64,000 nucleotides of DNA, taken from positions 27,886-91,885 of IMG/VR virus record IMGVR_UViG_3300023179_000056, one strand, 5' to 3'. Below, piece after piece: positions 8,254-62,212 of this stretch; the stretch's first letter is position 1; each line of letters opens with the position of its first letter. The notes beneath the pieces were generated by a model that saw only the letters and a list, made by a program, of their open reading frames with translations, did no database searches and was not told the origin of the DNA. Source of the DNA: a virus. The translations under genes were made by a program, and so were the position numbers.

Positions 8254-11200
8254 ATGGCAACCACTACCAGACAAACAGTTATATTCGGAGTAGAAGATTG
8301 GAAACGCATCTACGAGACCTACAGAGAAGCGGATTTCCAAAGCTATGACTTTGAAACCTTACGCAAAAGTTTTGTAGACTATCTGAGACAGTATTACCCA
8401 GAGACTTTTAATGATTACATTGAAAGTTCAGAATTCATTGCACTGTTAGATGTGATAGCATTCATGGGTCAGGCCATGAGTTTTCGTAATGATCTCAACA
8501 CCAGAGAAAACTACATAGACACTGCTGAACGTAGAGACAGTGTGGTTCGACTGGCCAATTTAATAAGTTATACACCCAAACGAAACACTGCTGCCAGTGG
8601 GTATCTCAAAGTATTTTCTGTTCAAACCACAGAAAACCTCACAGACTTCAATGGTATAAATCTAGCCAATGTCACAATCAACTGGAACGATCCTACCAAC
8701 TTCAATTGGTTAGAGCAGTTCACAGCCGTTATCAATGCAGCATTGGTAGATACACAACGAGTTGGACGTCCAGGCAATCGTGAAACCATAGTGGGAGTAG
8801 ATACATCAGAATATGCAATCAACCTGGTTCCTGGATTTTTGCCAGTATTACCCTACACAGCCACGGTGGATGGGGTTAATATGCCATTTGAAGCAGTGAA
8901 TGCCACATCGGTTGGGACACCATCAACTTCTCCTTTTATCTTTGAGCCAGCACCACAACCTAGTGGTATTTTCAACGTGTTGTTCCGCAATGACTCACTG
9001 GGTTATGCAGCAGCCAATACAGGATATTTTTTCTACTTCAAGCAAGGTGTATTGCAAAATCAAGATTTTAATCTAGCTGAACGCATTCCTAATCGCACAG
9101 TCAATATCAATATTGATGGTGTAAACAATGAAGATCGTTGGTTGTTTCAACTTGACAATACTGGCACAGTAACTAAACAATGGCAGTATGTACAGTCTGT
9201 ATATGCTGCGGCAGCAGAACAACTGGCACCAGACCAACGTAGTTTATTTTCAGTAACATCCAGGGCCAACGATCAAATCACATTGACATTTGGCGACGGT
9301 GTATTTTCAGCTGTGCCTACTGGGTTGTTCCGTGCATATGTTCGTGCATCAAACGGATTACAATACATTATTAATCCAGAAGAAATGCAAAGTGTAGTAT
9401 TGCCTATCAGCTATATCAGCAGATCAGGACAGTTGGAAACTATCACATTTACCTGTGGTATCACAACCCCAGTAAGCAATGCTCAAGCTAGAGAAACACT
9501 GGATGAAATCAAACAACGTGCGCCTGCTAGATACTATACACAGAATCGCATGGTCAACGGTGAAGATTACACTAACTTTCCGTTTACTGAATACAATTCT
9601 ATCATCAAGAGTTATGCATTAAACCGTGCCAGTATTGGTACCAGTAGATATCTTGATCTAGTGGACAACACAGGCAAGTACAGCTCCACCAACATCTTTG
9701 CATCTGACGGTGCCATATGGGAAGAAAATCAGTTGCCTACATTTTTGTTCAACTGGCTTACCAACAATGACATTGCTAATGTGCTGGTTAATCAAGTACA
9801 GCCAATAATAGCAACTGATGCATTTGTGCAGTTTTACTATGCCAACTTTCTTAGACCAGATCTAGCAGTATTGAATTTAACCTGGCATCAGAGCACAACG
9901 TTGGCCAATGAAACCACTGGATACTTTGTGAATGCTGCCGGCAATCCTGCACCTATCGGCGCATACAGCAGTTCTAATTCAAAATTTATTACTGTGGGCA
10001 GTTTGGTTAAATTTACAGCACCCGCAGGCTATTTCTTTGATGCCACCAATCGACTCAAATTGGGCATACCCACACTAGCAGATGAACGCTTGTACTTTTG
10101 GGCTAGTCCTTTGAGTATCTATCTAGACGGAACCAATCAAGGGCAAGGAAACTTTGTAGATGGAACAGGACCTGTGGCCATGAATGTGTTTGTGCCAACT
10201 GGTGCAATTCCAACTGAAGTAATTCCATTGTTAATTACCAGTTTGCCCAGCAGTTTAATCACAGAAATCACACAACAAATTTTGCTGTATAGAAATTTTG
10301 GGTTAGGATATGACAACACCGGCGCAATCACAGGTACACCGTACACATGGTATCTAATCACGTCCAACAACATAGACGTTGATGCCACTTTTAGTTTGGT
10401 CAATGCAGGTAGCACATCCGGCACAAATCAAGATGCCAGCTGGATGATCCAAGCAGTGACCAATGGTACAAAATACACAGTAACCAGTCGTGCATTGGTG
10501 TACAATTGGGGTTCGGTATTACAAACAAGATTTTTCTTTGAAACCGGCAATCGCATCTATGATCCGCGACTGGGCAATATAGTGAGCGACTATATTAATG
10601 TGCTCAAAGTCAATAGTTTGCCTGACTCAAATAGTCCTCAACCCGGGGACATTTATCTCAAGATTACCGGACAGCCTGTGCAGTCCGACGGACTAGTTGA
10701 TGATTTCCAAGTCATCGTCAGCTATGAAGATCGTAACAATGATGGTGTTACAGATGATCCTGATTTCTTCAATGAAATTGTTGCGCCTGACGTGAATTCA
10801 AATACAAAATATGTATTCTTCCAAAAGACCGTGGACTTTGACAATCTGCAACGCTATTTGTTAATTGCCTCTGGAGTTGTCAACAGTGACTATGCTACCA
10901 TGGATGATATTGAAGCTGTAAAAGCTCAATACATTATTGGGCAGATTTTTTATGCATATTCACAAACAATAACAGTGGGACCATTGGCCGGACAAGTGGG
11001 TGCGTTTTATCAATTGGTAATCAGTACCAATGGAACAAAAATCCTACTGGACGTGTCAGGGGAGTGGTTGGCCAAAGTGGGACGATCAGGAATGTATTTC
11101 CAATACCGGCACAATGCTCCGCTGACCGACCGTATTGATCCAGGTACTACCAACATTATTGATTTGTATGTGGTCACCCAGGCCTATTACACAGCTTATC

Positions 11201-51189: not shown

Positions 51190-51423
51190 TCAATATTTTC
51201 TGTGATGGCTTTTTGACACAATATCTTGTGGTTTGTAAAGCCAGCTACGATCCACAAAACCTTGCTCAATTTCTCTCAATGCTGTGACTGGATGCCCAGT
51301 CACTTTGGTAACTCGCGGCATGTCTCCACGTGCTAGTTCTCGTGCTCGTCGTGCTGCAATCAGTACCAATTCGTATCTATTGCCGATCATCTCTGCTGCA
51401 TGTTGACTGGTGATTCTTGCCAT
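51190..51423 (-). CDS. rpoZ: RNA polymerase omega subunit
   Basis: MARITS..A...IGNRYELVLIAARRAREL...TALREI omega signature; AGGAG RBS. Confidence 0.9.
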   Translation of the reverse strand: MARITSQHAAEMIGNRYELVLIAARRARELARGDMPRVTKVTGHPVTALREIEQGFVDRSWLYKPQDIVSKSHHRKY

Positions 51424-51482
51424 GTTGTTCTCCTGGGGTTGTTGATAGTTACAGTATACAATCGACCACATACAAAGTCAAG

Positions 51483-52275: not shown

Positions 52276-52298
52276 AAAAAAAAGCCCCTTGCGGGGCT
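52276..52298 (-). terminator. Rho-independent terminator
   Basis: AGCCCC-GCAA-GGGGCT followed by a U-run on the minus strand. Confidence 0.8.
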
Positions 52299-52301
52299 AT
52301 G

Positions 52302-52511
52302 TTAGCGGCAAAGACCGCGATACTCTGCTTTCACGTACCAATCAGGTGTAGACGTTGCACTGTTGTGTTCTCGGTTGTAATCACTTGCACGTTGCCGGGC
52401 TTCTGCTTCGTTATCGTAATACTCTGTATCCCAATGTTTTTGACCCCAACCACGTTCGTATTCGGTGAATTCTACGCGATAAGTTGCTGTAGGGGGTTGA
52501 ACTCTTGCCAT
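52302..52511 (-). CDS. Hypothetical protein
   Basis: YRVEFTEYERGWGQK; AAGGAG RBS and sigma70 promoter. Confidence 0.7.
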   Translation of the reverse strand: MARVQPPTATYRVEFTEYERGWGQKHWDTEYYDNEAEARQRASDYNREHNSATSTPDWYVKAEYRGLCR

Positions 52512-52571
52512 ATGCTTCTCCTTCTGTGTAATTACAGTATAGTACCTTTTGAGATAGTGGTCAACCTAACG

Positions 52572-53141
52572 TCAACTGTACTCGTACGGGGTATCTGGAT
52601 CATTATAGTTGACTTTGATATCACCTTTACTCTTGTCATATTCTTGGTAATAGACTTCGTTGGGTTGTAAGATTCTAAAACCATCATATTTCAATAAAGC
52701 AAATGTTACCTCTGCTTTATCAAGCATATCACAGATAATAAACGAACTGGCACAAGCACCTCTGATGTTTTTGAAGGAACTATGTTTGAATTCTTTATTC
52801 CGGAGTGCATTGTGCATATTACTGTTGGGGCTAAACATGATTCGTGTGATACCTAACTTTTGGTTACGCAAACGAATTTTATCAAAAACAGTGAGTTCAG
52901 TTAAGGTTGCTTCGTTATCGTCATTGATCTGTAATAAACAGTTTTTGACTTTGATGCTGCCTTTTGTAGATACATTGTCGGGCGTTTCCTTAGTTGACCA
53001 AGGTAGCCGGCAGTCTACATGATTGACGTATAACGTCTCCCCATGAAATTTTAAGACCCACATTGGGATGGTCTCGTCTTCCAAGTGCTTTTTGTTAAAG
53101 TGGAAAACACAATCTTTACAAGCATATTCAATCTACAACAT
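52572..53141 (-). CDS. 189-aa protein with an in-frame amber codon at position 3 (ML*IEYACKDCVFHFNKKHLEDETIPMW...)
   Basis: AAAGGA RBS, ATG at 53141, TTG, TAG at 53135-53133, then 16 open codons joining the called ORF at 53084 in frame. Confidence 0.8.
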
Positions 53142-53162
53142 TTTATTTTCCTTTAAGTTAAA

Positions 53163-53239
53163 TGGTGCGCTAGACAGGAATCGAACCTGCTACAATCTGG
53201 GTTAGAATCAGCTGCCCTTACCTTACGGGCTACTAGCGC
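53163..53239 (-). tRNA. tRNA with CUA anticodon (amber suppressor)
   Basis: GCGCTAG/CTAGCGC acceptor + ACCA, GCCC/GGGC D-stem, loop TT-CTA-AC centred on a CTG/CAG helix, TTCGATT T-loop. Confidence 0.85.
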
Positions 53240-53247
53240 ATGAGTGT

Positions 53248-53276
53248 AGTATATATGTTTTGCTTGATCAAGTCAA
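53248..53276 (-). promoter_or_regulatory. Sigma70 promoter for the suppressor tRNA and amber gene
   Basis: TTGACT-17 bp-TATACT. Confidence 0.75.
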
Positions 53277-53302
53277 GAAAAAAGGCAACCGAAGTTGCCT
53301 TT
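53277..53302 (-). terminator. Terminator of the tmRNA transcript
   Basis: AAAGGCAAC-TTCG-GTTGCCTTT followed by U-run. Confidence 0.8.
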
Positions 53303-53580
53303 AGTGTTATTTTTGGTTACAAGGTATAACTACCTCGCTATTAGGCGTTTGCTGCCAATAGGAATTGTGAATCGTTTGCGATTACTTTTTGTGCTTCTTC
53401 GGCCGAGTTCCCTCAATCCTAACGGCTTCTACATTGCCGGACTGTCTGGTCAAATACTAATTACCCAATCGATCACCATGTCCGCCCCACTAAAAAACTC
53501 TTTTTCAAAAAAAAATCTTTTGGTGGAGCGGGGGGTTTCGAAACCCCGTCTTGAATACTTTTCTTTTTCCTTCATACAAT
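53303..53580 (-). ncRNA. ssrA: Circularly permuted two-piece tmRNA; tag ANDSQFLLAANA*
   Basis: Acceptor piece ending CCGCTCCACCA (53521) precedes an AU-rich spacer and a coding piece starting GGGGCGG (53488); G3:U70 pair; tag ORF at 53379-53341. Confidence 0.9.
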
Positions 53581-53673
53581 CATAAATAGTAGAGTAAGGT
53601 GTTAGCGGTAACTAACACCAACCCCGGGGTTACTCGGGACTGTCCTCTACTGTATTTATAAGGGTTACACATC

Positions 53674-54426
53674 ATGTTCTATATTGTATATAAAACAATC
53701 AATCTTGTCAACAATAAATTTTATATTGGCAAACATCGCCAAACTATTGATCCGTATCAATTTGACGGTTATTATGGATCCGGTTCCCAGATAATCAATG
53801 CTGTAAAAAAGTATGGCAAAGATAATTTCGTTAGGGAAACTTTGTTTGTGTTTGAAAATGAATCTGAATGTTTGCTCAAAGAAGAAGAAACAGTAGCACC
53901 GCACCTGGGTAAATCATATTGTTATAATATGCGGTCAGGTGGTATAGGTGGGTTTGAACACATAAATTCTATACCAAAAGAAGATAGACCAAATATTAAG
54001 GCATATCGTCAAAAAGTTGATTCAGGTGAGATTGTAGTAGGCGGAACTCAAAATTGGACCGAAGAAACTTACAATAAAGTTAGGCAAACAGGTTGGTCTA
54101 AATTAGTAGAAATGGGATTGTTAAATCCTAATACTTGGGAAAATCTAACGGAAGATCAAAGAAAAGAAAGATCCGAAAACTTATCTAAAAAAGTTTCTGG
54201 TAGCAACAATGGATCTTATGGAACAAAGTTCTACTACAACCTAACAACAAAAGAAAAGAAGCGATTCGGACCCGAAGATGTTATTCCCAACGGATGGGTA
54301 AGTTCTGTAGATTATTTTGAATCAAAGAAAAAGACCCACTGGTATAACAACGGGTCTAAAAGTTATTTGTTAAAAATAGGTGATCCTAAAATTCAGCAGT
54401 TGGGGCTGGTCAAAGGAAGATTGTAA
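53674..54426 (+). mobile_element. Free-standing GIY-YIG (Seg-like) homing endonuclease
   Basis: YIVYKTINLVNNKFYIGKH...Y.GSG...YN motifs; antisense to the RNA array; flanked by duplicated tmRNA sequence. Confidence 0.88.
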
Positions 54427-54523: not shown

Positions 54524-54598
54524 TGGTGCTGATAGCAGGATTCGAACCTACGACCTCTTTCATACCAAGAAAGCACACTACCTCTGTGTTATATCAGC
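54524..54598 (-). tRNA. tRNA-Thr(GGT)
   Basis: Cloverleaf, loop TTGGTAT, CCA. Confidence 0.9.
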
Positions 54599-54671
54599 AA
54601 ATTAATTTAGTAAAAAACCTCTTGCTAGAGTGTTAAGCAAAGAACCTATTTAACTATAGGAGCACGTTGAT

Positions 54672-54746
54672 TGGTCTCCGCGACCAGAATTGAACTGATA
54701 TTTAAGTCTTAGGAGGACCTTGTTCTATCCTTTGAACTACACGGAG
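54672..54746 (-). tRNA. tRNA-Arg(CCT)
   Basis: Loop CTCCTAA, CCA. Confidence 0.9.
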
Positions 54747-54751
54747 TAGAG

Positions 54752-54826
54752 TGGCCGGTCCTGCAGGAATTGAACCCACATCACATGGTTCGAAGCCACG
54801 CATTCTATCCATTGAACTAAGGACCG
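54752..54826 (-). tRNA. tRNA-Arg(TCG)
   Basis: Loop CTTCGAA, CCA. Confidence 0.9.
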
Positions 54827-54881
54827 AAATAAAGAACCCTGCTGTGAGGTTGTCAAGAGCACAAGGCAGAGCCGTGTTGTT

Positions 54882-54973
54882 TGGCGGAAAGCAGAGGAGT
54901 CGAACCCCATCCCATTTCTGAGAACCTGGTTTTCAAGGCCAGTCGCAGGACCATCCCCGCTGCATTACTTTCC
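54882..54973 (-). tRNA. tRNA-Ser(TGA)
   Basis: Loop CTTGAAA, long variable arm, G73, CCA. Confidence 0.88.
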
Positions 54974-55123
54974 AAAATTGGTGGGAGGCGTTTTGAGGCC
55001 CGATGCTCCCTAGGGTAGATCACTACCGCCTGTCTCATTGCATTTTGATACTGTTACCTGCCCTAAGGATTAGGTACCTACCTTAGTGACTCATACTGGC
55101 GAATGAGACTTCGCCGCTGTTGT

Positions 55124-55198
55124 TGGAGCGGGCAGCGGGAATCGAACCCGCAACTTGTCCTTGGCAAGGATATGTGTTACCACTAGCACCATGCCCGC
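55124..55198 (-). tRNA. tRNA-Gly(GCC)
   Basis: Loop TTGCCAA, U73, CCA. Confidence 0.92.
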
Positions 55199-55213
55199 AT
55201 ATAAATACTTATC

Positions 55214-55510
55214 ATGTTGAAACAACATATACCACGAAATCTTCGACGCAGAATCATTGAACGAGATGGCTTACGTTGTGTTTATTGCGACGAGGATCTG
55301 TGTGATTCAGAAATCCATATGGATCACGTGATTCCTGAATCACAAGGAGGAGCAACCACTTACCACAATCTACAAGTGACTTGTCGTAAGTGTAATCTAG
55401 CAAAGGGTGTGTTATCTGAACATGAGTTCTCCAACAGATTGAGAACTCGTGCAATGAACATCCTTTACAGGCTCGGGTCTACAACAGACCTTCCGCAGTC
55501 AACACAGTAA
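55214..55510 (+). CDS. HNH endonuclease
   Basis: RDGLRCVYC...DHVIP.SQGG....NLQVTCRKCN..K; TATAAATA upstream. Confidence 0.9.
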   Translation: MLKQHIPRNLRRRIIERDGLRCVYCDEDLCDSEIHMDHVIPESQGGATTYHNLQVTCRKCNLAKGVLSEHEFSNRLRTRAMNILYRLGSTTDLPQSTQ

Positions 55511-56063
55511 CTGCATCGGCACCAAGCTCGATCTCAGTACGAACGTTGATATCCAACAATTCGTCCTGCAACTTTTGTTTGGCTTTCTTGCCCTGACTTA
55601 CTGCTGCCCGGAACCCTGCAATATCTTCTTGAGTGAAGATAGAAGTATCCACAGTGGCCTCGTGCCCGTAGTACAAATTACGAGTGTCTTCTTTGCGATT
55701 ACACAATTTTGACATCTTGCCTGCCACAACTTCCTCACTGTCACGTACAGCTTTACCAGACAATTCGACCAGATACTGGATTTTCTTGTCCATCAAGGCC
55801 ACATCGGCCAATTTCACATCCACACCCTGAGCCGCATTGGCCTGGCTCACAGCCTTGCGGATATCGTACAGGCTGTTCAGCAGTTCACGGTGACGATTTT
55901 GATTAGCAGCAAAGGCTTCACGCGCCTTGGCAATCACATCTTCTGCCACTTGGAATTCGTTGATTTTGACTTCAGTGTCAAATTTGATTGTTTTGATTGT
56001 GTCCTGGATGGCCAGTTGCAATGCATTGGCTTTACGTAGATTGATTTTCATATTTTCTTTCAT
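55479..56063 (-). CDS. Coiled-coil protein (possibly DIP1984-like)
   Basis: MKINLRKANALQ...KQKLQDELLDINVRTEI; ends in TAG; family call is from memory. Confidence 0.55.
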   Translation of the reverse strand: MKENMKINLRKANALQLAIQDTIKTIKFDTEVKINEFQVAEDVIAKAREAFAANQNRHRELLNSLYDIRKAVSQANAAQGVDVKLADVALMDKKIQYLVELSGKAVRDSEEVVAGKMSKLCNRKEDTRNLYYGHEATVDTSIFTQEDIAGFRAAVSQGKKAKQKLQDELLDINVRTEIELGADAVTVLTAEGLL

Positions 56064-56077
56064 TAAACAATAAGGGT

Positions 56078-56312
56078 GGCAAGACCCAGGTCAAGTTGCA
56101 GACTGAGCAAGGTGCAATATGCAACATGCAAAATACAAACCACAGTGGCCTGCATATGTCCGGTTATCAAAGTGCATATGTCTATAATAAGTCCGGTTCA
56201 CACAAGCACGATCCAGGAAACCCCGGAGGCCATAATTGGTCAGCTTTCAAGGCTGGTTGCTGGCTTGAAGCCAACAGTTTGTCTGTTCTAATCTACCTGG
56301 TTCTTACCTGCC
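56078..56312 (-). ncRNA. Structured ~235-nt leader/ncRNA with short internal repeats
   Basis: 13/14-bp closing helix (56308-56295 with 56091-56078); TATAAT upstream. Confidence 0.55.
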
Positions 56313-56370
56313 AGCTTTCGCTGACAAAACTAATTATATACAAAACAGCGATACAAATCAACTGTTTCGG

Positions 56371-56853
56371 CTAAGCTGCTCGGCGATTGCTCAACACCCA
56401 ATCCAGCCTGTCAGCAGCATAGCTGGCAGCAAAGGCTCTAGGCTTGACCATTGGAATCACATTGCAAGTGCCTTTGATGTAACCAATTGCTTGGTTAACC
56501 ACCACAGAGCTTTTGTGCATTTGATCTGGATTGATGTCCAAATGTACTTCCACAACACGATCTTCAAGCACATCACTCATCTTTTGGAACAGTTCACTAA
56601 CCTTGTATACTTCGTTCATGAGTCTCATGGCAGGTTTGTCGCTGCGTTGATCCCAGTCACGTTCACGTTGTACTTCACCAAAGATTTTGCAACCATGGCA
56701 GCTATCAATGTGTACAACCACCGCCAGAGCATAGTCTGCGTACCATACGTCATTGACTTTTACTCGTTCGCTGTCGCAGCCCAGATACACACTGGTTTCA
56801 GGACTTTGAGCATGTATAAATGCTTTGACTTTTTCTAGGTCCATTTTTTTCAT
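56371..56853 (-). CDS. RNase H-like YkuK (DUF458) family protein
   Basis: YLGCDS...RLMNEV...EVHLDIN...KP.AFAASYAAD; ends in TAG. Confidence 0.85.
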   Translation of the reverse strand: MKKMDLEKVKAFIHAQSPETSVYLGCDSERVKVNDVWYADYALAVVVHIDSCHGCKIFGEVQRERDWDQRSDKPAMRLMNEVYKVSELFQKMSDVLEDRVVEVHLDINPDQMHKSSVVVNQAIGYIKGTCNVIPMVKPRAFAASYAADRLDWVLSNRRAA

Positions 56854-56870
56854 AGTTGACTTTCTTTTAT

Positions 56871-56945
56871 TGGCGTACCCCGAAGGACTCGAACCCTCAA
56901 CTTACGGCTTTGGAGGCCGATGTGTTGCCATTACACCAGAGATAC
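56871..56945 (-). tRNA. tRNA-Trp(CCA)
   Basis: Loop CTCCAAA, G73, CCA. Confidence 0.9.
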
Positions 56946-56979
56946 ATTTTACTTACTTACACACTTTCACATTACACTT

Positions 56980-57071
56980 TGGTACGAGCGGAGAGGATCG
57001 AACTCTCTCAAGAACCCTAATCTGGGGCTAAAAGGCTTATAAAACCTCTCTGACTACCAAGTCTCGCTCGC
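56980..57071 (-). tRNA. Atypical tRNA with TAT anticodon and long variable arm
   Basis: Loop TTTATAA, tiny D-arm (GACT-TGGT-AGTC), long V-arm, CCA. Confidence 0.75.
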
Positions 57072-57078
57072 AATATTC

Positions 57079-57153
57079 TGGTCCGGCGTAGAGGAATCGA
57101 ACCTCTATAATGACTTTAGAAGAATCATGTCCTATCCGTTGAACGAACGCCAG
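57079..57153 (-). tRNA. tRNA-Arg(TCT)
   Basis: Loop CTTCTAA, CCA. Confidence 0.9.
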
Positions 57154-57161
57154 AAAATCTT

Positions 57162-57244
57162 TGGTGCGGGTAGAGAGACTCGAACTCTCACGCTAAAGCG
57201 TCTGGGCTTAAACCAGGTGTGTCTGCCAATTCCACCATACCCGC
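57162..57244 (-). tRNA. tRNA-Leu(TAA)
   Basis: Loop TTTAAGC, variable arm, CCA. Confidence 0.9.
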
Positions 57245-57272
57245 ACTTATTTTTTTTGCTCTTTCAATGTGT

Positions 57273-57346
57273 TGGTCTCGGTAGGAAGAATCGAACTTCC
57301 GCTTCATGCTCCCAAAGCACGGGTGATACCATTTCACTATACCGAG
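57273..57346 (-). tRNA. tRNA-Pro(TGG)
   Basis: Loop TTTGGGA, CCA. Confidence 0.9.
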
Positions 57347-57353
57347 TATTAAC

Positions 57354-57431
57354 TGGAGCAACGGGAGGGATTTGAACCCCCGGGTTTAGTGATTTGCAAT
57401 CACTTGCATTGGACCGCTCTGCCACCGTTGC
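57354..57431 (-). tRNA. tRNA-Cys(GCA)
   Basis: Loop TTGCAAA, U73, CCA. Confidence 0.9.
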
Positions 57432-57438
57432 ATGTTGT

Positions 57439-57512
57439 TGGTACCTCGTTGGAGAATTGAACTCCCGTATCCACCGTGTAAGGATGGCGTTCTACCATTA
57501 AACTACCGAGGC
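57439..57512 (-). tRNA. tRNA-Val(TAC)
   Basis: Loop CTTACAC, CCA. Confidence 0.9.
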
Positions 57513-57604
57513 AAATTTTCTATTCTGAAACACACTCATCACGCACCGTATTAACTGCGATCAACTAGTTAACCTAATAGGTATCAAAATGTGTTTTAGA
57601 ATAG

Positions 57605-58497
57605 TGGAGTGCTGAGAATACACACTTACCCAACAACACCTCGGACATTATTGTACACCTTGCGAGCATACTTTCTTCCGACTTCCACCAAGTTCTATTT
57701 CTAGATATCCTGGTCTGTTGTCAACATCGCCGTTTAGAGACAGGCAGTAGTCTTGTCGCCATATGCTATTCTACGCTTTCTATCCCGTTGACCTTGCGAG
57801 CCATTCAAGTGCGCTAACACCTTACGAAACTTCCTGCATAAACAAACCTCACCTTGCGAGCTTGGGTTGACTGGATTACCTTGCGGCTCCAGTATTAGAT
57901 GCTTTTCACATATGACCGAGTCAGTCTTTGCATTTTAATCGTTAGTAGGACTTGAACCCACAGTCGACTCCTTAACAGGGAGTTAGCTTACATTAGCTTA
58001 TAACAACCTACTGCGATGTGCTGACTCAGTTGCTTCATATTCTTTTGGAATACAAAATACAACACACCACGTTCCTTTTGTCTTGCGGACTACTCAGACG
58101 TCTTTCACGATCGGCGTCGGGGTCTCGGCTTTCGCATACCCGCCACTAACCATTAAAACTGCATACAAGCCCTTGGGTGCAACCCCTTGGACAAATACAC
58201 TACCCTTTCTCATACTAACTAACTGGACTGGTTTAGTTGTGAAGTCAGCACCACCTGTTACTTTCCATCTACTCCGGTTACCCTTGCGGGCCGGTAAGCA
58301 AACGTTCTTTCCACAACATCCAGCGTCATTGTTACAACCACCGGTCTTATCAGTGATCGGATCCTCACGGACCTGAGCAGGCTTGTCTAAACGAACCATT
58401 GCTGGCGGAGTTATGTAGGCATACCTCCTTTGGCTGTGTCACCACAGTTATTCTTCATAAACCAGCAAGCTGGCCTATAGGATGTTAAACCACCCTT
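57605..58497 (-). ncRNA. GOLLD-like giant ornate RNA (~890 nt)
   Basis: Long region with no credible ORF inside a tRNA array; many GCAA/GNRA-capped hairpins on the minus strand; embedded tRNA; ends approximate. Confidence 0.7.
57937..58007 (-). tRNA. tRNA-Asn(GTT)-like element embedded in the giant RNA, no CCA
   Basis: ACTCC-CTGTTAA-GGAGT anticodon arm; GTGGG-TTCAAGT-CCTAC T-arm; weak acceptor. Confidence 0.65.
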
Positions 58498-58743
58498 GAA
58501 TTTCATTGTAACATCAACTGCTGAACTAGTCAACTATCAATGTTACCAAAATCTCTATATCCACATACACTTGCAGGAATTGAACCTGCCCACCTGGCGA
58601 CCATTTGTACATCCAGGCTGTAATCCGCTACATCTGCCCGGCCTGGGCATTTGTGCATGTGGATATAAAGACTTGAACTGTTGTCAGTCTTTATATCAAG
58701 CGAATTTTTAATGAACAATCAGTTAATTTCTTAACTTGCAGCA

Positions 58744-58772
58744 AGTATAACATCAGTGGAGATACTTGTCAA
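58744..58772 (-). promoter_or_regulatory. Sigma70 promoter upstream of the giant RNA
   Basis: TTGACA-17 bp-TATACT. Confidence 0.75.
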
Positions 58773-58773
58773 G

Positions 58774-58847
58774 TGGTAGACTCTACAAGAATTGAACTTG
58801 TTTCTGTACCATGTCAGGGTACTGTTCTTCCATTGAACTAAGAGTCT
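58774..58847 (-). tRNA. tRNA-Val(GAC)
   Basis: Loop CTGACAT, CCA. Confidence 0.88.
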
Positions 58848-58857
58848 AGGATCTGTA

Positions 58858-58947
58858 TGGCAGAGGAAGGAGGAATCGAACCCCCACCAGCTCACGCCAG
58901 TGGCCTGTTTTCCAAACAGGTGTAGGAACCATCCTACTGCATCCTCT
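58858..58947 (-). tRNA. tRNA-Ser(GGA)
   Basis: Loop TTGGAAA, long V-arm, G73. Confidence 0.88.
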
Positions 58948-58954
58948 AATGTGT

Positions 58955-59029
58955 TGGTGGAGGATAGCAGATTCGAACTGCTGACTCTGCCATGCCATGA
59001 CAGTATGTTTCCAACTATATCAATCCCCC
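58955..59029 (-). tRNA. tRNA-Ala(GGC)
   Basis: G3:U70, loop ATGGCAT, CCA. Confidence 0.88.
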
Positions 59030-59063
59030 GAGCCCGGTAAATATGTATTACCAGGAGATTTTT

Positions 59064-59252
59064 ATGAGTGACTTTTTTGCCCGCGATCCACGTATCCAAG
59101 ACGATGTAATCAGAGACCTTGAAAAAAAGATACACTATCTCATGGCCTGCATTGACAATCAAGGCATGCTCATGGACAACACTGTGTTCAACGTGCCCAG
59201 TTTGCCTAATGAAGTCATGGCCGATGCCATGGAAGTTGCACAACAATTATAA
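59064..59252 (+). CDS. Small hypothetical protein, antisense to the tRNA array
   Basis: TAAATA promoter, AGGAG RBS, MSDFFARDPRIQ... Confidence 0.65.
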   Translation: MSDFFARDPRIQDDVIRDLEKKIHYLMACIDNQGMLMDNTVFNVPSLPNEVMADAMEVAQQL

Positions 59253-59335
59253 TGGTGCCCCGGGCGGGATTCGAACCCGCAAAAACCTGGCTTCTAAGAC
59301 CAGTAGCTGTGCCAATTTGCATAAGTCACCAGGGC
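59253..59335 (-). tRNA. tRNA-Leu(TAG), atypical (short V-loop, enlarged D region)
   Basis: Loop CTTAGAA, CCA. Confidence 0.8.
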
Positions 59336-59352
59336 AAATTTCTTGGTGGTTG

Positions 59353-59426
59353 TGGTAGTAATTGAAAGAATCGAACTTTCGTCACCAGCGTATGAAACTA
59401 GGGTTTTACCATTAAACTAAATTACC
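59353..59426 (-). tRNA. tRNA(CAT), elongator Met or Ile2
   Basis: Loop TTCATAC, CCA. Confidence 0.82.
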
Positions 59427-59473
59427 AATATTTATACTTTGATTAGTCGCTATGCTACACTGCCATTAATTTT

Positions 59474-59549
59474 TGGGTTGATCTATGGGAGTTGAACCCA
59501 TTCTATCGCTTTCACAGAGCGAGGTGCGCACCGGTACACTAAGAACAAC
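59474..59549 (-). tRNA. tRNA-His(GTG), copy 1
   Basis: G-1:C73, loop CTGTGAA. Confidence 0.85.
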
Positions 59550-59565
59550 ATAAATATAGTTAAGA

Positions 59566-60666
59566 TTACATATTCAAGATAGAAGCAAATTCAGGAAAAT
59601 ATTCTTTATACGATTGATCTCTCAATTGATCAACTTCACGTATCCTATCTGATAGGCATCTAGTTAAAGTTTCCTGTCCATCACCCAGTAAATAAGTCTT
59701 GATCGGCTGTGCCGGGGCAGATAATAAATTTCTAGCTATCAAATCTTTTAAATTATTAGATAAATTAATAATGTTAAAATGCTGCGGTTTTGTTACTAAC
59801 CCAATATAGGGTACAGGTAATTCTTCTTGTTCGATCCATCTTATGAAATTGTCTAAGTAAAAAACGTTTAAGATACCAACGGTGTGACTAATGCTTAATT
59901 GAATGTTACTAGTTGCACGTTGAAATTCTTGATATCGCTTAATATTAGCATATACAATTTCCCACTTAGCGGGATGTCGCATATACTCAAATTGATTACC
60001 TACACCGTCTATACTCAGTTGAATATCAACACTTTTAAATTGCTTCCATAAAGAAATTAACTCTGGTTTGGGAAAGTTTGTACAATTTGTAATGTATCTC
60101 AGTGTTTTCTTTTCTGGATTATGATTTAATAAATATTTGATATAATCTATGTGTTCTTTTATACCCGAATAAAATGGTTCACCGCCCGGGAACTCAATCA
60201 AAATCGCGTCTTTTGACAATTCAAAAAGACGAAGCATTGTTTCAGTATTTTTATAAAATTTATTATGATTGAAAATCTTAATCTCAGGTCTATGCTTTTT
60301 TAATTCTTTTTCATCCGAAACCCAACTTGAGCTAGCATAACTTTTGCAATATCTACAAGATAGATTACATGTATTACCAAATGCAAAACTTACTATTTTA
60401 AGCGTATCATTAAAAGATTCTTGACATAGAGTACTTGACTCTAATTGTCTTTTGCTATCTTTGCCTGATAATTCATCTTTCCAACATCTATTACATGCGC
60501 TAGGCTTTTCTCCTAACAAAAAAGCAGACTTCAACTCTTTTAGTTCTTTGCTCGATAGATAATCATCTAGATTATCTGCAATAGAAGTAGCATATTTACA
60601 GCAAGGTTTGAATTCCCCCTGAGGACTAATGTCTATTCCTTGCCACGGTAGCTTACAAAAAGTCAT
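59566..60666 (-). CDS. Radical SAM protein (twitch-domain type), AT-rich
   Basis: FCKLPW...KPCC; CNLSCRYC; GGEP; TAAATA directly upstream of ATG 60666. Confidence 0.88.
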   Translation of the reverse strand: MTFCKLPWQGIDISPQGEFKPCCKYATSIADNLDDYLSSKELKELKSAFLLGEKPSACNRCWKDELSGKDSKRQLESSTLCQESFNDTLKIVSFAFGNTCNLSCRYCKSYASSSWVSDEKELKKHRPEIKIFNHNKFYKNTETMLRLFELSKDAILIEFPGGEPFYSGIKEHIDYIKYLLNHNPEKKTLRYITNCTNFPKPELISLWKQFKSVDIQLSIDGVGNQFEYMRHPAKWEIVYANIKRYQEFQRATSNIQLSISHTVGILNVFYLDNFIRWIEQEELPVPYIGLVTKPQHFNIINLSNNLKDLIARNLLSAPAQPIKTYLLGDGQETLTRCLSDRIREVDQLRDQSYKEYFPEFASILNM

Positions 60667-60813
60667 CTTATATTTAACATGCAATATAACAGGATGCATT
60701 TTTACGTTTTAGATTAGAAGTCTAGTGTATAAAATGTTTGCAGTTAGCATCCTAAAATTGGTTTCCAGCAGGTAACGCTACTTGATATTAAGTTAAGGGC
60801 AATAAATACTATT

Positions 60814-60978
60814 ATGAAAACATACAAGAATCATACTCCAAGTGGTTTGAACTTCCACCTGTCACTTAGTGACTCTGGCGTTTGCTACATCATTGTGTAC
60901 GATGTGTTTACTGCCGAAGCTCAAATGCGTTATTTTACCAACGTGTCTCGAGCCTTGCGTTTTATCAACAATCTTTAA
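60814..60978 (+). CDS. Small hypothetical protein (54 aa)
   Basis: Translated by hand: MKTYKNHTPSGLNFHLS...FINNL; ATAAATA upstream. Confidence 0.6.
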   Translation: MKTYKNHTPSGLNFHLSLSDSGVCYIIVYDVFTAEAQMRYFTNVSRALRFINNL

Positions 60979-60979
60979 T

Positions 60980-61054
60980 TGGGGTGACTAACGGGTAACG
61001 ATCCCGTGCTACAACTTTCACAGAGTTGGGTGCTTCCATTACACCATAGCCACC
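60980..61054 (-). tRNA. tRNA-His(GTG), copy 2
   Basis: G-1:C73, loop CTGTGAA, atypical T-loop ATCGTTA. Confidence 0.85.
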
Positions 61055-61582
61055 ATATCTTTTGTCTACTATATAGAAACATTTTCAATATTAGTTCAAT
61101 GCTGGCACAAAGAACCGTTCGCCCCTGCCAGGGGACCGAAGTAGTTACCGCTAATTTCTGGGCGGCACCCTCCCCGTCAAAAATGTTTATATATGGCCCC
61201 AGTCTCTCCTAGGAAGTCACGACTGACGCTGCCGTTTACGCTGGGTAATGACCCCAGACCGGAACCTTACCATATAGAAACACACCGCTGTTGCTACGTC
61301 ACAGGTAGGGTGATCAATCCTCTTACCGATGTGTTTTTATATAGCGAACTCATTGTAGACAGGATTCGAACCTGCAAGAGGCGTTTATTTCCTCAGGCCC
61401 CTTCAATGAGGCCCATGTATACCATTCCATCACTACGAGTTCATCGGGTCATGACTCCCGATTCTGGTCGAGGTTAATTACTCCTTCAGATACCATAAGT
61501 AAACACACTACAGGGTCCTCTATAACCTGCGCCGGAATGAATTCGAATACTTCACCGGAAGATTTAGTAATGTGTTTGCTTA

Positions 61583-61658
61583 TGGTCGGGGCACAGGGAT
61601 TCGAACCCTGAATTGGCACTTTAAAAGAGTGCTGTGATAACCGTTTCACTATACCCCG
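61583..61658 (-). tRNA. tRNA-Lys(TTT)
   Basis: Loop CTTTTAA, CCA. Confidence 0.9.
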
Positions 61659-61663
61659 TATAT

Positions 61664-61738
61664 TGGTCCCGTGGCTCAGATTCAAACTGAGTTCTCTCGG
61701 CTTAAGAGGCCGGACTTCATCATCAAAGTTTCCTCGGG
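61664..61738 (-). tRNA. tRNA-Lys(CTT)
   Basis: Loop CTCTTAA, CCA; atypical D/T loops. Confidence 0.82.
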
Positions 61739-61855
61739 CGGTGCATACTAAATTGTCTTTAATGTGCCAATCCAGGACCAATATACGGGGTCTACGATTG
61801 ACACTACATTTTACGAGATTTTCGTTTCATATAGTACCTTTTTGTTTATGTATTA

Positions 61856-61884
61856 ATTATACAACCTTTTGCAGTAGTTGTCAA
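61856..61884 (-). promoter_or_regulatory. Consensus sigma70 promoter
   Basis: TTGACA-17 bp-TATAAT. Confidence 0.85.
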
Positions 61885-61900
61885 CTGTGATCTGCTTGCA

Positions 61901-61977
61901 TGGTACCACCTGAGAGATTCGAACTCCCAATCCCCGGATTCGTAATCCAGTGCTCTATCCAGTTGAGCCAAGGCGGT
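61901..61977 (-). tRNA. tRNA-Arg(ACG)
   Basis: Loop TTACGAA, CCA. Confidence 0.92.
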
Positions 61978-62052
61978 AAAAAAACTAGTCCAGAGGCTCT
62001 CCAAATAACGGAACAAACACTCAGTCACTGTGAGTGACGCATGGACTTGACT

Positions 62053-62131
62053 TGGTTGCGGGGGGTGGATTCGCACCACCGATCTCCAGCTTATGAGACT
62101 GGCGGGGACGACTAGACTCCCCTACCCCGCG
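62053..62131 (-). tRNA. Initiator-type tRNA-fMet(CAT)
   Basis: CGCGGGG acceptor with C1xA72 mismatch; loop CTCATAA. Confidence 0.85.
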
Positions 62132-62137
62132 ATAACT

Positions 62138-62212
62138 TGGTGCCCCTTGCAAGAATCGAACTCGCACACCCTGCTTACAAAACAGGACCTCTACCATTAA
62201 GGATAAAAGGGC
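62138..62212 (-). tRNA. tRNA-Thr(TGT)
   Basis: Loop TTTGTAA, CCA. Confidence 0.9.

Follow-up and report, generated by a model that had tools for sequence, protein, structure and literature searches.

An amber suppressor tRNA gene beside a conserved early UAG codon: a candidate tRNA-gated translation unit in a group of phages

We analysed a 64,000-nucleotide stretch of viral DNA (the window) from the IMG/VR record IMGVR_UViG_3300023179_000056, in which a tRNA gene with the anticodon CUA lies directly upstream of a gene whose third codon is an in-frame UAG. The full record is a 91,885-bp viral contig, estimated by CheckV at about 26% of a genome, and the source, a freshwater phage, is therefore probably a jumbo phage. 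All parts of the unit are on the minus strand. Directly upstream of it lies a two-piece (permuted) transfer-messenger RNA (tmRNA) gene at 53278..53632, which scored above gathering on the betaproteobacterial and the permuted tmRNA models of Rfam (RF01850, 88.1 bits, gathering 84; RF04321, 84.2 bits, gathering 47). A sigma-70-type promoter, TTGACT-17-TATACT (53248..53276), follows with 10 of 12 consensus positions in the promoter scan, its −10 element ending 8 nucleotides before the first base of the tRNA. The tRNA(CUA) itself (53163..53239) is 77 nucleotides long with an encoded CCA end. It was called by ARAGORN, is in keeping with its fold and with the family comparison given below, and passed the cloverleaf threshold of the Rfam tRNA model RF00005 (50.4 versus 29 bits) despite a weak anticodon stem. 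Eight nucleotides after the tRNA is the Shine-Dalgarno (SD) sequence AAAGGA (53149..53154), and 7 nucleotides further on an ATG (53139..53141) is followed by TTG (53136..53138), TAG (53133..53135) and ATT (53130..53132), so that the base after the stop triplet is A. Read through the TAG, the coding sequence comprises 189 codons and ends in TGA (52572..53141); the 170-amino acid open reading frame (ORF) placed by the gene caller at 52572..53084 lies inside it, in frame with ATG TTG TAG ATT GAA. We refer to this as the gated gene. The scan found no terminator-like site between the tRNA and the gated gene.

An earlier interpretation made from the letters of the window (the sequence-only reading) had named the promoter at 53276-53248, the tRNA(CUA) at 53239-53163 and the AAAGGA-led ATG TTG TAG ATT continuing in frame to 189 amino acids, and all three were borne out by the scans and translations above. 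It had also called 53277-53302 a terminator. The hairpin and its T-run are real: the terminator scan reported them at 53281..53302. The label needed correction, since in the Rfam alignment these bases form the terminal helix of the tmRNA, the 3′ hairpin of the two-piece gene. The element is still a probable intrinsic terminator that insulates the unit.

UAG is a rare but ordinary stop codon in this contig and its relatives. A census of the whole contig showed that only the gated gene joins an SD-led start through a TAG, with zero cases among the other long ORFs. In the contig and the related loci described below, TAG is the terminal stop of 36 of 590 distinct long ORFs (6%), and UAG is therefore still a normal stop; no back-up stops were seen shortly after the TAG-ending ORFs of this set. 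The code-15 phages (crAss-like, Lak and others) read TAG as glutamine and carry in-frame stops in 26-71% of their genes, mostly late structural and lysis genes (bioRxiv 10.1101/2021.08.26.457843). The present contig shares with them a suppressor tRNA(CUA) of its own, called by ARAGORN and Rfam. It differs in having one such gene in 91,885 bp and in keeping TAG in use as a stop. The phage contig thus uses the standard code, and the view of the sequence-only reading that the genome is not globally recoded was correct.

To see how far the arrangement extends, relatives of the gated protein were collected, of which metagenome protein sets held 1128. We fetched 62 loci from viral contigs at 46-77% identity. 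Pooled with the window, the Rhizobium phage RHph_I1_18 and 120 loci reached from the tRNA, they gave 86 distinct proteins. In 62 of 62 fetched loci, a TAG stands in frame a few codons after a homologous SD-led ATG and directly before I-E-Y-A-C; in the pool, 83 of the 86 distinct proteins are gated by a TAG in this manner. Whether homologs extend N-terminally through IEYACKD..FHFNKKH, and what they have at codon 3, were points raised by the sequence-only reading: the relatives do extend through this segment, and nearly all of them have TAG at that place. Among the 83 gated sequences the leader before the TAG is 1 to 9 codons long, most commonly 2, and the base 3′ of the TAG is A without exception (83/83). 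The genes themselves end in TAA (53) or TGA (25), and never in TAG. A search for early stops by one rule for all three triplets (an SD, a start, at most 10 codons, the stop and at least 70 open codons) returned 149 layouts with TAG versus 47 with TGA and 26 with TAA; 120 of the 149 belong to the main family, and most of the remaining 29 represent the background level. The DNA of the locus and of the tRNA had zero matches in 50,697 phage records.

In the single window, and with a standard gene caller shortening the gene to 163-170 amino acids, the early TAG might be taken for a sequencing or assembly error, or for a chance nonsense mutation in a pseudogene beside an unrelated tRNA. This is refuted by conservation, as 83 distinct sequences, drawn from many samples, share the TAG and purifying selection acts directly behind it, and we give such an artefact practically no weight. 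Over the 23 codons from the TAG to the first in-frame ATG, the ratio of non-synonymous to synonymous variation (pN/pS) was 0.11 (pS 0.69, pN 0.08) in 65 distinct sequences. This value indicates that the 23-codon stretch behind the TAG is translated and under purifying selection, though it has no standard start before it.

Protein databases present the same genes in two forms. Among 121 database proteins, standard-code calls of relatives are shortened to 163-180 amino acids, many of them beginning at a downstream start, and all full-length calls (189-197 amino acids) show a Q just before the conserved I-E-Y/F motif. One database protein (P0039) is identical, letter for letter, to the TAG=Q reading of a locus that bears TAG. 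The Q residues therefore stem from code-15 gene calls and not from sense codons. A cultured T4-type rhizobiophage, RHph_I1_18, carries a gene of 82 codons for the N-terminal domain alone. It begins ATG AGT GAG TTC ATG TAG AAC, with TAG as codon 6, and is absent from the annotation of the record; a tRNA(CUA) begins 11 nucleotides after its stop.

The position of the start codon was judged from the leaders of the relatives. The distance from the SD to the ATG is constant, and that from the SD to the codon after the TAG is variable; because the SD-ATG spacing is fixed despite varying leader length, the ATG is the true start. Ribosomes could then terminate at the UAG of this mini-ORF of 2-10 codons and the same ribosome could re-initiate at the adjacent AUU, AUC or AUA, where the protein would begin, with the tRNA(CUA) being unrelated. 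The codon after the TAG is indeed ATT in 69, ATC in 7 and ATA in 3 distinct relatives (79 of 83), ATT follows the TAG in 60 of 65 sequences versus 38 of 53 isoleucine codons at the other mostly-isoleucine position of the stretch, and two TAG-less relatives (L163 and L187) begin with ATG ATA GAA at the same point. Re-initiation does not, however, account for four distinct relatives and RHph_I1_18, where AAC or AAT follows the TAG; neither codon is a near-cognate start, and the conserved core has no other start ahead of it. In the PTH2-like genes described below, which share the leader, the codon at this place is GTG/GTT, AAC or ATT. The invariant A after the UAG also counts against re-initiation, being a context that favours suppression in E. 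coli genetics. Lastly, it leaves unexplained why a same-strand tRNA(CUA) is kept in 60 of 62 loci while synteny is otherwise lost. We therefore consider re-initiation very unlikely.

The linkage to the tRNA was determined in flanks of up to 10 kb on either side of the gene, or up to 20 kb in all, at each of the 62 loci. In 60 of them the strand of the gene also carries a tRNA(CUA), and all of these belong to one family. ARAGORN alone called it in 54; five further loci have family tRNAs with odd T-loops that ARAGORN misses, and one more has a variant with a GCA...TGC acceptor 296 nucleotides upstream. The two loci without a tRNA(CUA) are short contigs, one of which ends 186 nucleotides upstream of the gene. 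The tRNA lies 30 nucleotides to 7 kb upstream of the gene, or just downstream, and the other neighbours of the gene are not conserved across relatives. The co-occurrence of early TAG and tRNA(CUA), on which the sequence-only reading had made its proposal depend, is thus found in 60 of the 62 loci. In the reverse direction, a search from the tRNA pattern found the gene within the returned flank in 65 of 120 loci, and in all 64 loci found by tblastn it was on the strand of the tRNA. In three loci (L124:9834-9908, L125:4245-4319 and L127:9193-9267), the T-loop TTCGAAT is replaced by ATCGTTA, CTCGATA or ATCGATA and ARAGORN makes no call. Since such non-standard T-loops escape the program, tRNA censuses of these phages undercount suppressors.

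It could be argued that the tRNA(CUA) mainly serves elsewhere, in general UAG read-through or in replacing a host tRNA hit by a defence nuclease, and that the UAG of the gene is a coupling device or a trap. Consistent with this, three relatives without the TAG have retained the tRNA, and 55 of the 120 tRNA loci lack the gene in the available flank, which in nine cases extends over 8 kb downstream. A phage tmRNA, which handles read-through products, is often nearby, and the jumbo rhizobiophage Phosso has two tRNA(CUA) genes and a homolog with no TAG. On the other hand, the tRNA(CUA) is the only tRNA that ARAGORN called in 38 loci within the up to 20 kb around the gene, and TAG-ending ORFs lack back-up stops, so that they show no sign of having adapted to heavy read-through in general. 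Such a role would moreover be compatible with gating and would change only which part is primary. As the main function of the tRNA we regard it as unlikely.

The suppressor tRNAs form a distinctive family. All 37 distinct sequences compared share G1-C72, C2-G71, G3-C70, A73, the encoded CCA and the anticodon loop YUCUAAA. Their anticodon stem is 3-4 bp, with fewer than five standard pairs in 34 of 37; 29 of them have C.A, C.C or A.C at position 31.39, and 13 have a mismatch at 27.43. The window tRNA has the same acceptor pairs and A73, and its anticodon stem has three standard pairs and, as the sequence-only reading had described, the mismatches G27.A43 and A31.C39; only three anticodon-stem pairs are retained in its minimum-energy fold. 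A tRNA-Thr that is naturally mismatched at G27-A43 and bears the anticodon CUA was reported to read UAG better than its 5-bp version (PMC13092985, 2026). As an unpaired 27-43 favours UAG read-through in that case, the weak stem looks like a design feature of the tRNA family. In 18 of 39 distinct upstream regions a sigma-70 promoter with at least 9 of 12 consensus positions ends 7-9 nucleotides before the tRNA 5′ end, as in the window, and this placement suggests that transcription begins no more than a few bases from where the mature tRNA starts.

ARAGORN labels the tRNA 'tRNA-Pyl', a label that follows from the CUA anticodon and is the one point in favour of the insertion of a special, pyrrolysine-like amino acid. 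In tRNA-Pyl the anticodon stem has 6 bp, the variable loop has 3 nucleotides, the small D-loop lacks GG, and there is no T-psi-C motif. The window tRNA is instead an ordinary cloverleaf, with a 9-nucleotide D-loop containing GG, a 5-nucleotide variable loop, the T-loop TTCGATT and a 3-bp anticodon stem. In addition, the UAG lies in a variable leader and not at a functional site. The ordinary architecture of the tRNA excludes the pyrrolysine reading, whose probability we put close to nil.

A search for the leader in tRNA loci lacking the 189-amino acid family showed that the same gate stands before genes of a second kind. In L193 (787-1188, + strand), ATG ACG TAG AAC precedes a full gene for the peptidyl-tRNA hydrolase PTH2, 264 nucleotides after a tRNA(CUA); the match to Pfam PF01981 (E 1.4e-28) covers profile positions 1-115 and hence the whole domain, and the window protein has no such match. 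The same leader, beside the same tRNA family, precedes members of a PTH2-like family (phrog_1866) in L173 (4548-5006, +), L175, L200 (1985-2308, +) and L176 (6274-6645, −; phrog_1866 match E 2.4e-7). In these PTH2 and PTH2-like genes the UAG is at codon 3-9. The gene of the main family in L176 has lost its TAG, and a gap of 1 nucleotide separates it from the end of the amber-gated PTH2-like gene before it. Such spacing is typical of translational coupling, by which the gate would act on the whole operon. In L127, an ORF for a NUMOD3 homing endonuclease (9311-9994, +) is inserted in frame after MS-UAG-IEYAC, and the displaced gene has a new SD-led MTQK-UAG leader (ATG, 3 codons, TAG), which is encoded at the end of the insert. 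Candidates for amber-gated PTH2 in the cultured phages Myrna and Gurke were rejected as ordinary genes. A 115-amino acid ORF in L247 (2496-2840, −) starts with ATG AAT ACG TAG ATC 57 nucleotides after a tRNA(CUA). This ORF, which neither Pfam nor PHROGs matched, may be a further client.

In the AlphaFold model of the 189-residue window protein, a beta-rich N-domain spans about residues 4-84 and a ferredoxin-like C-domain about residues 95-175; the pLDDT was 86 for this model and 89 for the other of the two models made. The stretch after the TAG forms the first beta-strand. Pfam gave no match to the window protein, the only PHROG match was non-significant (E 0.26), and matches in BFVD were to uncharacterised phage proteins only. 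A protein atlas search with the part behind the TAG gave no usable match. Between phages that have otherwise diverged, the N-domain retains a column-by-column identity of about 82%. A profile search of 1.8 billion representatives placed it in 142 clusters and in three layouts, namely the two-domain form, the stand-alone form and a form C-terminal to a helical extension, the last in proteins of about 175 amino acids without TAG. Longer fused forms were not found, nor any informative fusion among the 142 clusters. Bacterial genomes yielded one match only, in a 7.6-kb contig of a metagenome bin, and hence no host clue.

The genomic context points towards translation rescue. In Phosso, the last of these three forms is part of an overlapping operon of PTH2, a hypothetical gene, the domain protein and an RNA-repair-type protein with kinase and metallophosphatase parts. 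A tRNA(CUA) lies 5 kb upstream of this operon, and the island that holds both also has genes for aminoacyl-tRNA synthetases. Atu_ph07 has the same operon by gene layout, Pfam having been run on the Phosso genes only; a pattern scan found no tRNA(CUA) there, and the suppressor described in the Atu_ph07 paper is a UCA one. About 26 of the 62 related loci have a same-strand permuted tmRNA at a distance of no more than 10 kb. ARAGORN misses the window tmRNA but calls permuted tmRNAs in 21 related loci. No SmpB, PTH2 or RF-1 domain was found in the 92-kb contig. With modest confidence, we place the gated protein in tRNA, ribosome or rescue biology, and most likely it belongs to a phage translation-maintenance kit together with tmRNA, PTH2 and RNA repair. 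It is this context that favours translation maintenance over the timer, the sensor of tRNA attack or the lock on a toxic gene that the sequence-only reading had offered.

Several observations on these loci may be added. The record annotation of the first Phosso region (L151, Phosso 169971-179178) lists a cysteinyl-tRNA synthetase, the tRNA(CUA) (as undetermined), a short 'serine-tRNA synthetase', a tyrosine phosphatase, PTH2, the domain protein and a 'metallophosphatase'; in Pfam the last is a kinase-type AAA_33 plus a metallophosphatase domain. Directly after the second tRNA(CUA) of Phosso (L152:2808-4103, Phosso 446807-448102) is 1.3 kb without an open frame, which may hold an unannotated structured RNA. 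The tag frame of the window tmRNA, read by eye from the alignment, is A-N-D-S-Q-F-L-L-A-A-N-A-stop.

On the basis of these findings, it is likely that the full-length gated protein is made only when the adjacent suppressor tRNA reads through the UAG. The tRNA(CUA) would be transcribed from its own strong host-type promoter, and in the window the same transcript would continue into the mRNA of the 189-amino acid protein. Ribosomes would start at the SD-led AUG, read one or two codons and reach UAG-A, where release factor 1 (RF1) would terminate unless a charged suppressor tRNA decodes the codon. The yield of full-length protein should then be proportional to the working suppressor tRNA, and the output of the gated protein would be matched to suppressor activity. 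As tRNA and mRNA would come from one promoter, the unit would form a coherent feed-forward AND gate with low leak and a delayed, steep onset. Since the leader that holds the UAG is short and variable and precedes the first beta-strand, the identity of the inserted residue should not matter, and a closed gate would waste little.

Some of the results weigh against this interpretation. The TAG-less relatives L163, L187 and L176 have a nearby tRNA(CUA) all the same, which means that the tRNA serves further clients or some different purpose. The isoleucine codons (AUU/AUC/AUA) behind the TAG in 79 of 83 sequences are compatible with re-initiation as well. The window tRNA is the most degraded of its family, combining both mismatches and three stem pairs with a C38 that is unique among the 37. 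A comparison with 200-odd co-resident phage tRNAs gave no clear nearest class for its isotype, so that no inserted residue was assigned. Structural comparison did not point to a function: Foldseek against the PDB had no match at E<=0.001, its top rows being ribosomal uL6 and RRM proteins at a TM of about 0.2, and VIA-align likened the C-domain to ACT- and RRM-type ferredoxin folds (Z<=5.1) and gave the N-domain alone a best Z of 3.5, likenesses too generic for a function to be drawn. The comparisons establish the anatomy of the unit, the conservation of its UAG, the translation of the stretch behind it and the linkage to the tRNA; from these we infer that the UAG is read through, that the tRNA is charged and co-transcribed with the gene, and what the protein may do. 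With that reservation, the core claim of the sequence-only reading, translation gated by a co-located suppressor, was supported by each comparative test run.

The gated gene is followed on the minus strand by a promoter-like site (52536..52564, promoter scan), a 69-amino acid ORF (52302..52511) that has no Pfam match and is not conserved beside the gene in relatives, and a terminator-like hairpin (52283..52298, terminator scan). The region 52283..52564 is the probable end of the transcription unit; its membership in the module is unproven. Further downstream, a 93-amino acid ORF (51190-51471, −) has an RNA polymerase omega/Rpb6 domain (Pfam E 1.6e-12), and a phage-encoded omega-like subunit is unusual. 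On the upstream side, an array of 23 further tRNA genes (54524-62212, −) includes two tRNA-His, two tRNA-Met and a 92-nucleotide tRNA-Ile(UAU), as well as a call with an undetermined two-base anticodon (61351-61439). A tRNA-Sec-like match at 54886-54973 is below threshold (34.7 versus 47 bits). Between the array and the tmRNA, a 250-amino acid ORF (53674-54426, +) is probably a homing endonuclease; its match to SegE-type GIY-YIG proteins (E 0.002) is below the cut-off.

We compared the unit with known systems in which an early or in-frame stop controls translation. For the code-15 phages introduced above, in-frame stops were proposed to delay translation until synthesis of the tRNA (bioRxiv 10.1101/2021.08.26.457843). 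In both cases a phage tRNA(CUA) overrides UAG in a standard-code host. Here, however, a single UAG occupies a fixed site in the first codons of one gene (of PTH2-type genes in sister phages), the tRNA lies beside its client, and UAG remains a stop elsewhere. An engineered parallel exists: a synthetic feed-forward 'leak dampener' in E. coli uses one input to drive an amber suppressor tRNA and an early-amber mRNA, so that the output needs both (PMC7969014, Nucleic Acids Res 2020); the phage unit, by comparison, is natural, conserved in a large clade and equipped with a dedicated short-stemmed tRNA family. Two standard-code phages have been described with a tRNA(CUA). For the Xanthomonas phage XacN1 no target was found, its authors having read through annotated stops only (PMC5852040), and for the Stenotrophomonas phage Summit the abstract reports that target genes were not identified (PMC9022506). 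Judged by these reports alone, the difference is that the client here is an unannotated N-terminal leader with a UAG.

Two classical systems bear likeness to parts of the unit. The release factor 2 gene prfB has an early in-frame UGA that is passed by a +1 frameshift and recognised as a stop by its own product. It, too, ties the yield of a translation factor to the balance of termination and recoding by an early in-frame stop, but in the phage unit decoding would stay in frame and would need a separate tRNA. The lambda bar minigenes consist of an SD, an AUG, one or two codons and a stop, and PTH-type hydrolases remedy the peptidyl-tRNA drop-off that such minigenes cause. The leader with its gate closed is formally such a minigene, and PTH-type genes are gated likewise in sister phages; the difference is that the stop is followed, in the same frame, by an ORF that is conserved and under selection. 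By this analogy, a closed gate may be linked to peptidyl-tRNA drop-off.

Phage suppressor tRNAs, genome-wide recoding and the synthetic amber feed-forward circuit are thus known already. Searches of the literature turned up no account of one conserved early UAG that has a tRNA dedicated to it. What is new comprises the PTH2 clients, the operon-level gate of L176, the endonuclease insertion, the traits of the tRNA family and its promoter placement, the link to tmRNA and the selection test. It is possible, though somewhat short of probable in our estimate, that the leader and the short-stemmed tRNA(CUA) make up a portable natural regulatory cassette, placed before various translation-rescue genes (the 189-amino acid family and the PTH2 type, once with a homing endonuclease riding in). 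As a feed-forward AND gate, such a cassette would match the supply of rescue factors to the stop suppression imposed by the phage, and would be a stable change of the code at one codon and not a step to full recoding.

These results have consequences for annotation, as many of the 121 database relatives are shortened and the full-length ones are called under code 15, and as the gene of RHph_I1_18 is missed altogether. They suggest a possible kind of client for the orphan suppressor tRNAs of standard-code phages, such as those of XacN1 and Summit, whose reports found no target. If the interpretation is true, a natural one-codon gate would be the counterpart of the synthetic amber-suppressor feed-forward circuits and could supply a compact pair of tRNA and leader. 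A single reassigned codon would then be able to persist at the same place throughout a large clade, which bears on models where a suppressor tRNA leads to genome-wide recoding. The unit also provides a testable link between suppressor tRNA, tmRNA and peptidyl-tRNA hydrolase in the control of host translation by phages.

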